Assembly (NCBI GenBank): GCA_000004695.1
Contig: CM000153.2
Span: 1,440,001 to 1,504,000, forward strand
Source: Dictyostelium discoideum
Lineage: Eukaryota
Reading direction: 5' to 3'
Length of the DNA stretch: 64,000 bases
A program made the position numbers and the translations under genes. Under the pieces are notes generated by a model. It was not told the origin of the DNA, did no database searches, and saw only the letters and a list, made by a program, of their open reading frames with translations. Below, one piece after another: positions 60,251 through 62,171 of the stretch. Positions within the stretch are counted from its first letter, which is position 1. Every line of letters begins with the position of its first letter.

Positions 60251-60254
<4 letters not shown>

Positions 60255-62171
60255 CTTTTTAATGGCATTAAAGATGAAATTGTATCTTTCCAATCATTAC
60301 AATCATTTGAAGAAGTTGAAAAAGTAATAATTTCAACAGGAGAGATTGAATTTGTTTTGATGTATAATTTTATATCGGAATAACCTGGATGATTTGGATT
60401 ATCAGTGACGATATCAATTTGGAAGCAGGTATCTAAGTTTATGTATTGTGAAGTTGGAATTTGTTTAGTTTCATCGAAATATTCCCTCATTTCACCATCG
60501 GTTGAGATTTCATAATATCTCTTTTCTAAAGTTTCTTGATTTGAACTACTAATTGATTTTCTCTTTAACCAACCTTCTTTGACAATCTTTGTAATTAAAC
60601 ATGGATTTGAATTTGATGATGATGATCTTGATCTTGTAATTGGTACACCTGTACTTAATTTTGAATTTCCATTATTATTGTTGTTGTTGTTGTTGCAATT
60701 GTTATTACTACTATTACTACTATTGCTACAATTACTATTACAACTATTATTTAAACTTCCACTACCACCACCACCACCACTACTATTACTACTACAACTT
60801 AATGGTGATGTTGGTATATTACTACTACTATTATTATTACATGTATTGTTTGTTGAAGATGAACCTGATGAATTTATTGATGAAGTCGATGAAGTAATTG
60901 ATGTGGTTGATGAAGTAATTGATGTAGTTGTTGTAGTAGTTGTTGATGCCATTGATGTTGGGAATGATATACTTCTATTTCTTTTAGATTTATTATTAAA
61001 ATTTCTAAAATAAAAATAAAAATAATAATTAATAATAATTAATAATTAATAATATATAAAATATGGTAATGGTAATAATTACCTTTCGTCATCAATTTCT
61101 AAATTTGACATTAATTTAGTATTTTCTGAATTAACTTTTGAAAGTTTTTCTTGTTCTCTAATAATCTTTTGACCTAATACAAAGTTTTCAGCTTTTAATG
61201 CATCAATATCTTCTTTTTTATTACCATTAGATTCAAGTTCTTTGATTTTATCTCTTAATACAATTACCTCATCTTGTAATTTCAAAAGTGATCTATGATC
61301 ATTAATTTCATTTTCTAATCTTTTTTCTAATGCTCTAAAATAATTATAAATTAGAATTAGAAATAAAAAAAAATTAAAAAAAATTAAAAAAAGTAAGAAA
61401 AGAGGGGTATTAATAAAAGAGGTATTTTTTTTTTTTTTTTTTTTTTCTTTCTTTTTTTCTTTTTTTTTTAAAATAAATATAATTACTTTTTATCTTTCAT
61501 TACATCTTGAATTTGTTTTTGTAATTTATTTACAATGAATTCTTCTTCTTGTTCTAATTGATTTTCAAGATCGACTTTTTCTTTCATAATCTATAAAATC
61601 AAGTATAACAAAATTTATATATATATAAAAAAAAAAAAATTAATAAATAAAACATAAAAAAAAAAAAATATGTAAATAAAATAAAAAAAGTGAAAAACAT
61701 ACAGTTAACATTTTCTTTTGAAGAGTATTTGTAAGGTATTCTTCCTCTTGTTCCACTTTTAAGGCAAGTTCTTCCTTTTCTTTTTTCAATTGATTCAAAT
61801 ATTTCATAAATTTATTAGTAATATACTCTTCTTCATTCTCTGTTACTATTTGCTAAATAAAGGTAATTTGTAAAAATGATTAATAAAAAAAAAAAAAATA
61901 ATAATAATAATAAAAACAAAAAATATAATATAATAATAAAAAAAGGAAAAAAAGTAATATGTTAATATAAAAAAAAAAAAAAAGTGTAAAATATATATTT
62001 TAATTAAAAAAGAAAATAAAATAAAATTATAATTACAATTCTTGCATGTGAGTCTCTTAATTGTTTTAATTCTTCTACTAATGTTCTATTTCTATTTTTT
62101 TCTGTCAATAACTGTCTTTGAAGATCTTCAATTATTTCTTTTGAAGATTTCTCTGCTGCATTACTGTCCAT
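60251..62171 (-). CDS. CCDC6-like coiled-coil protein fused to a C-terminal PH domain, 5 exons, about 464 aa
   Basis: Exons are 62171..62037, 61852..61703, 61590..61487, 61334..61083 and 61004..60251. Donors are GTAATT, GTATGT, GTAATT and GTAATT. Acceptors are tttatttag, ttttatag, tattttag and ttattttag. Lengths of 135, 150, 104, 252 and 754 nt conserve phase. It has the CCDC6 signature repeats (ENEEEYITNKFMKYLNQLKKEKEELALKVEQEEEYLTNTLQKKML, LEQEEEFIVNKLQKQIQDV) and a coiled coil. A T/S/N/G-rich linker follows, then a PH-like domain (ITKIVKEGWLKRKS...RYYEIS...KLYIKT...). Confidence 0.7.

Follow-up and report, generated by a model that had tools for sequence, protein, structure and literature searches.

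The rcdII Locus

The DNA analyzed here is a 64,000-nt stretch of the Dictyostelium discoideum genome, positions 1,440,001 to 1,504,000 of contig CM000153.2 in GenBank assembly GCA_000004695.1. This stretch, hereafter the window, has a G+C content of 20.6%, and all coordinates below are those of the window. On its minus strand, between 62171 and 60251, lies the gene rcdII. Its product combines a CCDC6-type coiled coil with a C-terminal PH domain, the two being separated by a low-complexity linker. Five exons join at canonical GT..AG junctions to form a 1395-nt in-frame coding sequence, specifying 464 amino acid residues plus a stop codon. An exact-sequence look-up shows that the translated product matches, at each of its 464 residues, the entries XP_638725.1, EAL65361.1, and UniProt Q54Q72, the last of which bears the database name “PH domain-containing rcdII” for D. 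discoideum AX4.

The exons divide the protein as follows. Exon 1 (62037–62171), which starts with the ATG at 62171, encodes residues 1–45, the beginning of the coiled coil. Exon 2 (150 nt, 61703–61852) carries the first two of three CCDC6 repeats, and exon 3 (104 nt, 61487–61590) carries the third; the orthologous exons of Polysphondylium violaceum are likewise 150 and 104 nt long. Exon 4 (252 nt, 61083–61334) encodes a further helix, predicted to span residues 170–219, the sequence ENFVLGQK, and the first half of a family motif, DDER|NFN. Exon 5 (754 nt, 60251–61004, including the stop codon at 60251–60253) encodes the end of the coiled coil, a phospho-motif, the linker, and the PH domain. 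The four introns are 184, 112, 152, and 78 nt long, in order, and all are bounded by GT..AG. Intron 4 (61005–61082) is the one between the coiled coil and the linker/PH exon.

These boundaries had been proposed in an earlier note made from the letters of the window alone, and all of them hold, intron 4 included, as splicing reproduces them and yields XP_638725.1. The motifs quoted there, i.e., the three acidic repeats, VKEGWLKRKS, and KLYIKT, are present, and the internal open reading frame (ORF) it pointed to, 60251–60952, beginning MASTTTT, exists as described.

Public reference annotation already includes rcdII, with its exons and its two domains. Q54Q72 and the locus are the same gene with the same five-exon model and no difference between them; the public name cites only the PH domain. 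Both Pfam domains are precomputed on the database representatives of the gene and its close orthologues. A published table lists the gene as DDB_G0284041, and mass spectrometry of pulldowns has picked up its protein (PMC11507795). The prefix “rcd” is the Dictyostelium abbreviation of “random cDNA clone” (PMC4263456). In the searchable full-text literature, we found neither a functional study of rcdII nor any discussion of how it relates to CCDC6; the one Dictyostelium paper retrieved under the gene name was the proteomics study of O-fucosylation. What we add to the annotation is the evidence that rcdII is one gene, the distribution of its architecture across the Amoebozoa, a conserved phospho-motif, and a caution on reading the PH domain as a phosphoinositide sensor.

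One Gene Rather than Two

The internal ORF 60251–60952 opens with an ATG, the codon for Met232, and this feature suggests a different reading of the locus, one that the earlier note had named as its own refutation. That is, a short coiled-coil gene might end near 61083, and the PH domain might belong to a second, independent gene with Met232 (60952, MASTTTT) as its start. The transcripts that cover the junction come from orthologues rather than from D. discoideum, which also leaves some room for two genes.

Transcripts of orthologues bear on the question. Six metatranscriptome contigs of 1.7–1.9 kb (L002–L007) contain the Polysphondylium orthologue as an uninterrupted ORF of 425 residues. When L002 is aligned with the P. 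violaceum genome, it falls into five blocks, and the gaps between blocks, of 104, 82, 70, and 78 nt, lie at homologous intron positions. A contig of this type is a spliced mRNA in which the coiled coil and the PH exon are continuous and the four homologous introns have been removed. Beyond Polysphondylium, the two domains occur together in a single protein in over 20 transcript ORFs of other amoebae, none of them interrupted by introns.

The pattern of insertions and deletions (indels) at the locus was compared among another D. discoideum strain, D. citrinum, and D. purpureum. In the alignments with the other D. discoideum strain and D. citrinum, exon indels are all multiples of 3, whereas each of the four introns has one or more indels of a length not divisible by 3. 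Intron 4 shows an 8-nt indel against the other D. discoideum strain and 7-nt indels against D. citrinum and D. purpureum, and its identity with the D. citrinum sequence is 0.67, against 0.92–0.98 for the exons. The GT donor of intron 4 is kept in all three comparisons and the AG acceptor in two; the D. citrinum acceptor is aligned as AT, probably through an alignment slip in AT-rich sequence.

The junction itself also argues against a gene boundary. Intron 4 is just 78 nt long, runs from GT to AG, and offers no space for a terminator and a promoter. The conserved motif DDER|NFN is split across the exon 4/5 junction, and a second conserved element, RNRSISFP, is encoded by the part of exon 5 that precedes the Met232 codon. 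In the reference annotation, too, the two parts are fused. The orthologous mRNA, the intron 4 indels, the junction-spanning motif, the RNRSISFP element, and the single-ORF transcripts thus contradict an independent PH gene that begins with MASTTTT, and we regard the two-gene reading as hardly credible.

The Coiled Coil and the CCDC6 Family

The Pfam profile DUF2046/CCDC6 (PF09755) matches rcdII in two stretches with a score of 85.1 bits, the cutoff being 24.7 bits (E = 6e-24). Three acidic repeats, spaced about 29 residues apart, are found in the N-proximal part of the protein: ENEEEYITNKF at residues 50–60 (61808–61840) and EQEEEYLTNTL at residues 79–89 (61721–61753), both in exon 2, and EQEEEFIVNKL at residues 108–118 (61522–61554), in exon 3. 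The repeat columns are unchanged in 15 of 15 aligned homologues. A full-length AlphaFold2 model, computed for a monomer from the 15-homologue alignment, has a helix from residue 10 to residue 165 with a predicted local distance difference test score (pLDDT) above 90, and a second helix from 170 to 219. All three repeats lie within the first helix, and the helical region that matches DUF2046 comprises residues 10–219. Near its end, at residues 211–217, the sequence DDERNFN represents the end-of-coil motif of the family, (D/E)ER.FN. A CCDC6-like protein of Xenia matches rcdII at E = 2e-27.

By sequence criteria, then, rcdII is a member of the CCDC6/DUF2046 family, and the family call made from the letters alone is borne out by the Pfam score and by the placing of the three repeats in one long helix. 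With animal CCDC6 (H4/D10S170, the RET/PTC1 partner), rcdII shares the DUF2046 match, tandem EQEEE[FY][IL]xN repeats, and an (E/D)DER.FN motif followed by RxRxxSxP. Homologues that are animal-CCDC6-like by sequence carry the matching arrangement DDERHFN...RVRTVSSP, in which RVRTVSSP is their form of the RxRxxSxP site. The number of acidic repeats differs, as animal CCDC6 has four and the amoebozoan protein three.

The C-termini differ altogether. In rcdII, the coiled coil is followed by a linker rich in Ser, Asn, and Thr and by the PH domain, whereas the animal-type sequences retrieved end in Ser/Pro-rich tails without a PH domain. Human CCDC6 has a Pro-rich, SH3-binding tail and an ATM site. 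Thus, rcdII does not have the C-terminal architecture of the animal type, i.e., a Ser/Pro tail and no globular domain.

The PH Domain

The PH domain extends from residue 355 to residue 460 (60266–60583, minus strand) and is composed of seven β-strands and a C-terminal helix that contains Trp452. The Pfam PH profile (PF00169) detects it at E = 5e-9, scoring 33.8 bits when the whole protein is searched and 36.9 bits when the C-terminus is searched alone (cutoff 25.1 bits). Trp452 is unchanged in all 20 family sequences aligned. The full-length AlphaFold2 model places a compact β-domain at residues 354–459. Modeling of the C-terminal 137 residues on their own, from a 20-sequence alignment, gave a pLDDT of 83.7, seven strands, and a helix at 119–132 (model numbering).

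Searches of the PDB agree with this assignment. Foldseek, run with the separate PH model, returned as its best matches the PH domains of Akt1 (1unr, E = 2e-6), evectin-2, and PLEKHA7; there were 47 PDB matches at E ≤ 1e-3, nearly all of them PH domains. A profile of the family, searched against PDB sequences, found PLEKHB2 first (1.7e-7), followed by GRK2, myosin X, and Akt, the values ranging from E = 1e-7 to 1e-5. This search gave 89 PDB sequences at E ≤ 1, and the 60 matches listed are, without exception, PH domains or PH-containing proteins. Both assignments, DUF2046 and PH, are secure, their Pfam scores being well beyond what chance would produce. What had been described as a PH-like domain following a linker rich in Ser, Thr, and Asn is a genuine PH domain by Pfam, by the profile search of the PDB, and by the AlphaFold2 and Foldseek results. 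Proteins that combine CCDC6 and PH aside, the highest scorers with the PH profile are giant proteins of 2000–2800 residues (P0110, P0111, and P0119), each with 7–10 PH-like stretches.

Distribution of the Fusion

The combination of a CCDC6 coiled coil and a PH domain was found in every dictyostelid retrieved, i.e., in Dictyostelium, Polysphondylium, Cavenderia, Heterostelium, and Acytostelium. Beyond the dictyostelids, it occurs in Cavostelium and Phalansterium (Evosea, Variosea), in Arcella and Pyxidicula (Tubulinea), and in Stygamoeba (Discosea). The fusion is therefore present in all three amoebozoan phyla, Evosea, Tubulinea, and Discosea.

A hidden Markov model of the PH domain, built from 20 family PH regions, was run on the DUF2046 homologues. 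It detects the domain in all of the amoebozoan groups just named. With this model, no PH domain was detected in the sampled DUF2046 homologues of green algae, Mesostigma, red algae, a haptophyte, a centrohelid, fungi, and animals. Since the PH domain is found with the coiled coil in three amoebozoan phyla and is absent elsewhere among the sampled groups, its gain in the amoebozoan stem is the most parsimonious reading of the sequences. The earlier note had held that the fusion is missing from the animal orthologue, which agrees with the animal homologues retrieved, none of which has a PH domain by the model. It had also tied the fusion to “this lineage”. The lineage in question is that of all Amoebozoa and not Dictyostelium alone.

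Two wider searches were made. An exhaustive HMMER search with the PH profile against 1.84 billion representatives gave 776 matches, many of the top ones being multi-PH proteins with scores summed over several stretches. It added about 12 clusters with the CCDC6 and PH combination, none of which has a taxon name. A word-indexed homologue search with an alignment of the PH region alone added only three new fragments.

One database entry has a different layout. In the 978-residue protein PRP89054.1 of Planoprotostelium fungivorum (P0097), a POT/MFS transporter and further sequence are fused to a CCDC6 coil that ends abruptly, without a PH domain. This looks like a merged, truncated annotation rather than a real architecture.

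The Linker and Its Flanking Motifs

Just past the coiled coil, at residues 222–229 (60959–60982, minus strand), is the sequence RNRSISFP. It fits two consensus sequences at once: RxRxxS, the consensus of AGC kinases and other basophilic kinases (R222–S227), and RSxSxP, that of mode-1 14-3-3 binding sites (R224–P229). The site, as RxRxxSxP, is kept in all dictyostelids and in most other amoebozoan homologues. It falls 5–15 residues past (D/E)ER.FN, and it is also seen in the homologues P0057/P0088 (residues 341–350) and P0014 (residues 227–234). We consider RNRSISFP a candidate AGC-kinase and 14-3-3 site.

Upon IGF1 stimulation, human CCDC6 binds 14-3-3, and the binding is sensitive to PI3K inhibitors (PMC2773716). 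The RxRxxSxP site may correspond to the site of this PI3K-dependent binding in the human protein.

A second RxRxxS match, RSRSSS, is found at residues 338–343 (60617–60634), directly before the PH domain. It is kept as R[SA]RS[SA]S in all dictyostelids, where it lies within the conserved segment VPITRSRSSSSNSNPCL, and it is also present in the homologue P0021. Between the two sites is the low-complexity linker, residues 230–337 (60635–60958), with tracts of poly-Thr and poly-Asn; its 108 residues include 35 Ser, 26 Asn, and 18 Thr. In the AlphaFold2 model, residues 221–349 have pLDDT values below 50, as expected of a disordered Ser/Asn/Thr-rich segment. The length of the linker varies, so that the proteins of D. 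discoideum strains have 462, 463, or 464 residues and those of sister species 452–473. Two RxRxxS sites around a flexible linker would suit a 14-3-3 dimer, a speculation drawn from the motifs.

The linker may also be glycosylated. In slugs, rcdII was 15.9-fold enriched in an anti-Fuc-O-Thr pulldown from the wild type relative to a spy knock-out (p = 0.043; PMC11507795, Table 2). The linker is a plausible substrate of the Spy O-fucosyltransferase.

On the opposite strand, an ORF at 60579–61013 (144 residues) includes a poly-Leu stretch, LLLLLLQLLLL. It is an antisense reading of the Ser/Asn/Thr tract and was rejected as a gene.

What the PH Domain May Bind

Two known PH domains serve as references. 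That of Akt/PKB (1unr, 1h10, and 2x18) is the best structural match, with a template modeling (TM) score of about 0.66 on the target length. Its β1 strand, IVKEGWVQKR, is nearly identical to IVKEGWLKRK of rcdII, and the counterparts of Akt Lys14 and Arg25 are basic in rcdII (Arg362 and Arg376). The likeness has limits. Overall identity is about 20%, Glu374 takes the place of Akt Arg23, the rcdII domain is net acidic, and rcdII has no kinase domain. The second reference, the phosphatidylserine-binding PH domain of evectin-2/PLEKHB2 (3aj4), ranks first among the sequence-profile matches and near the top among the fold matches, with a TM score of 0.73 on the target length. Its phosphoserine contacts are Arg11, Arg18, and Lys20. 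Only the position of Arg11 is basic in rcdII; at the positions of Arg18 and Lys20, rcdII has Thr372 and Glu374.

The Akt likeness invites the view that the PH domain is a specific sensor of phosphatidylinositol 3,4,5-trisphosphate (PIP3) or phosphatidylinositol 3,4-bisphosphate, of the Akt, CRAC, and PhdA type, which would bring the scaffold to the plasma membrane or the leading edge upon PI3K activation. The PH domains of Akt1, Akt2, and Akt3 are the best fold matches, and the β1 strand and the two basic counterparts point the same way. In addition, human CCDC6 acts downstream of PI3K (PMC2773716), and the two sites flanking the rcdII linker match the Akt consensus.

The β2 region tells against such a sensor. 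Glu374 occupies the Arg23 position in the series Arg362...Glu374-Lys375-Arg376, and the 3-phosphoinositide signature K-Xn-(K/R)-X-R is therefore incomplete. The Arg23-equivalent position is basic in none of the 20 family members aligned, and β2 varies freely outside the dictyostelids. The net charge of the domain is −6 in D. discoideum and is negative in 19 of 20 homologues. Judged by its sequence, the rcdII PH domain falls outside the subclass that carries the 3-phosphoinositide-binding signature (Akt, GRP1, and CRAC type). No report tying rcdII to PIP3 binding was found in the searchable full-text literature, a body of text that excludes supplementary tables. Given the incomplete signature, its lack of conservation, and the charge of −6, a sensor of the PIP3 type is judged unlikely. 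Of the membrane or phosphoinositide targeting suggested in the earlier note, the Akt-like β1 strand and the two basic counterparts stand; the rest of the signature is incomplete and unconserved, and targeting is best kept as a hypothesis.

It is also conceivable that membranes are not involved and that the PH domain is a protein-interaction module, recognizing a partner or the protein's own phosphorylated linker. Most PH domains lack specific phosphoinositide binding. The acidic character of the domain in 19 of 20 homologues fits such a module, as does the pattern of conservation, in which the residues of the lipid pocket are unconserved while the core and the C-terminal helix, with its W..L..L.P motif, are conserved. 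On the other side, there is no known partner, and most members keep the basic cluster of β1, (V/L)LK.GW.K.K. Moreover, a dimeric scaffold is a classic means of making weak lipid binders effective. We take a protein-interaction module to be a possibility of real weight, while leaning against it.

A Proposed Scaffold and Its Standing

The following scheme is suggested for the protein. By analogy with human CCDC6, whose capacity for coiled-coil self-association is exploited in RET/PTC1, the long helix is probably dimeric or oligomeric. In a dimer, two PH domains would be presented on flexible tethers, as a targeting module of low affinity that depends on avidity. The ligand of the PH domain might be an acidic lipid or a protein, a high-affinity PIP3 pocket being unlikely. 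The RxRxxS sites at either end of the linker would likely serve as AGC-kinase sites and 14-3-3 docking sites, and they may regulate the targeting. The Ser/Thr tract of the linker may be O-fucosylated.

We hold this account as a whole with considerable confidence. That rcdII is a single five-exon gene encoding the amoebozoan form of CCDC6/DUF2046 with a C-terminal PH domain is shown by the sequence comparisons; that its product works as a scaffold along the lines just given is a proposal built on them. Several points weigh against this reading. No D. discoideum transcript across junction 4 was observed directly; the two contigs recorded are not evidently transcripts, and one of them is of chromosome scale. 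The PH domain is net acidic and its K-Xn-(K/R)-X-R signature incomplete, which makes lipid binding uncertain even of a weak kind. The evidence for O-fucose comes from one condition only, at p = 0.043 and without a mapped site. Oligomerization, the PH ligand, phosphorylation, and 14-3-3 binding are all inferred, from sequence or by analogy.

The last of these points concerns the distribution. A protein labeled as that of the glaucophyte Gloeochaete wittrockiana (P0078/P0037; EukProt, MMETSP1089) has the full CCDC6 and PH architecture. Its coiled coil finds its best matches in Stygamoeba and other amoebozoans, by small margins. The protein may be an amoebozoan contaminant or a real exception to a fusion confined to Amoebozoa.

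A more specific version of the scheme would make amoebozoan CCDC6 a scaffold of the PI3K pathway. In this version, the dimer would bring two PH domains to the membrane, and the pair of RxRxxS sites, once phosphorylated by an AGC kinase, would recruit a 14-3-3 dimer that switches the targeting off. We think it improbable that the protein works in this way. If it did, the link of human CCDC6 to PI3K and 14-3-3 would be ancestral, and Dictyostelium would offer a tractable system for the normal function of a gene known from cancer fusions.

CCDC6 is a recurrent partner in kinase fusions, e.g., with RET, and a proposed tumor suppressor, the normal biochemical role of which is poorly defined. An amoeba counterpart with a recognizable targeting domain and a basophilic site of the 14-3-3 type would provide a simple route to the ancestral function of CCDC6.

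Neighboring Genes and Intergenic DNA

On the plus strand, divergent from rcdII, is the gene for the large subunit of ribonucleotide reductase (63516–64000), which starts at 63516 with MISNSINV and continues into an ATP-cone. Downstream of rcdII, on the same strand, is a PDCD2-like gene with a zf-MYND domain (58595–59943). Another D. discoideum strain and D. citrinum have the reductase gene, rcdII, and the PDCD2-like gene in the same order; D. purpureum has its PDCD2-like gene upstream and on the opposite strand. The possibility of a further small gene in the interval separating rcdII from the reductase gene was considered and rejected, as the longest ORF in the interval encodes 49 residues and no gene is called there in other assemblies.

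Two homopolymer tracts follow rcdII. A poly(A) run of about 40 nt, as read on the gene strand, comes directly after the rcdII stop codon (60221–60250), and ahead of the next gene is a poly(T) run that exceeds 50 nt (59960–60020). Such tracts are typical of intergenic DNA in Dictyostelium.

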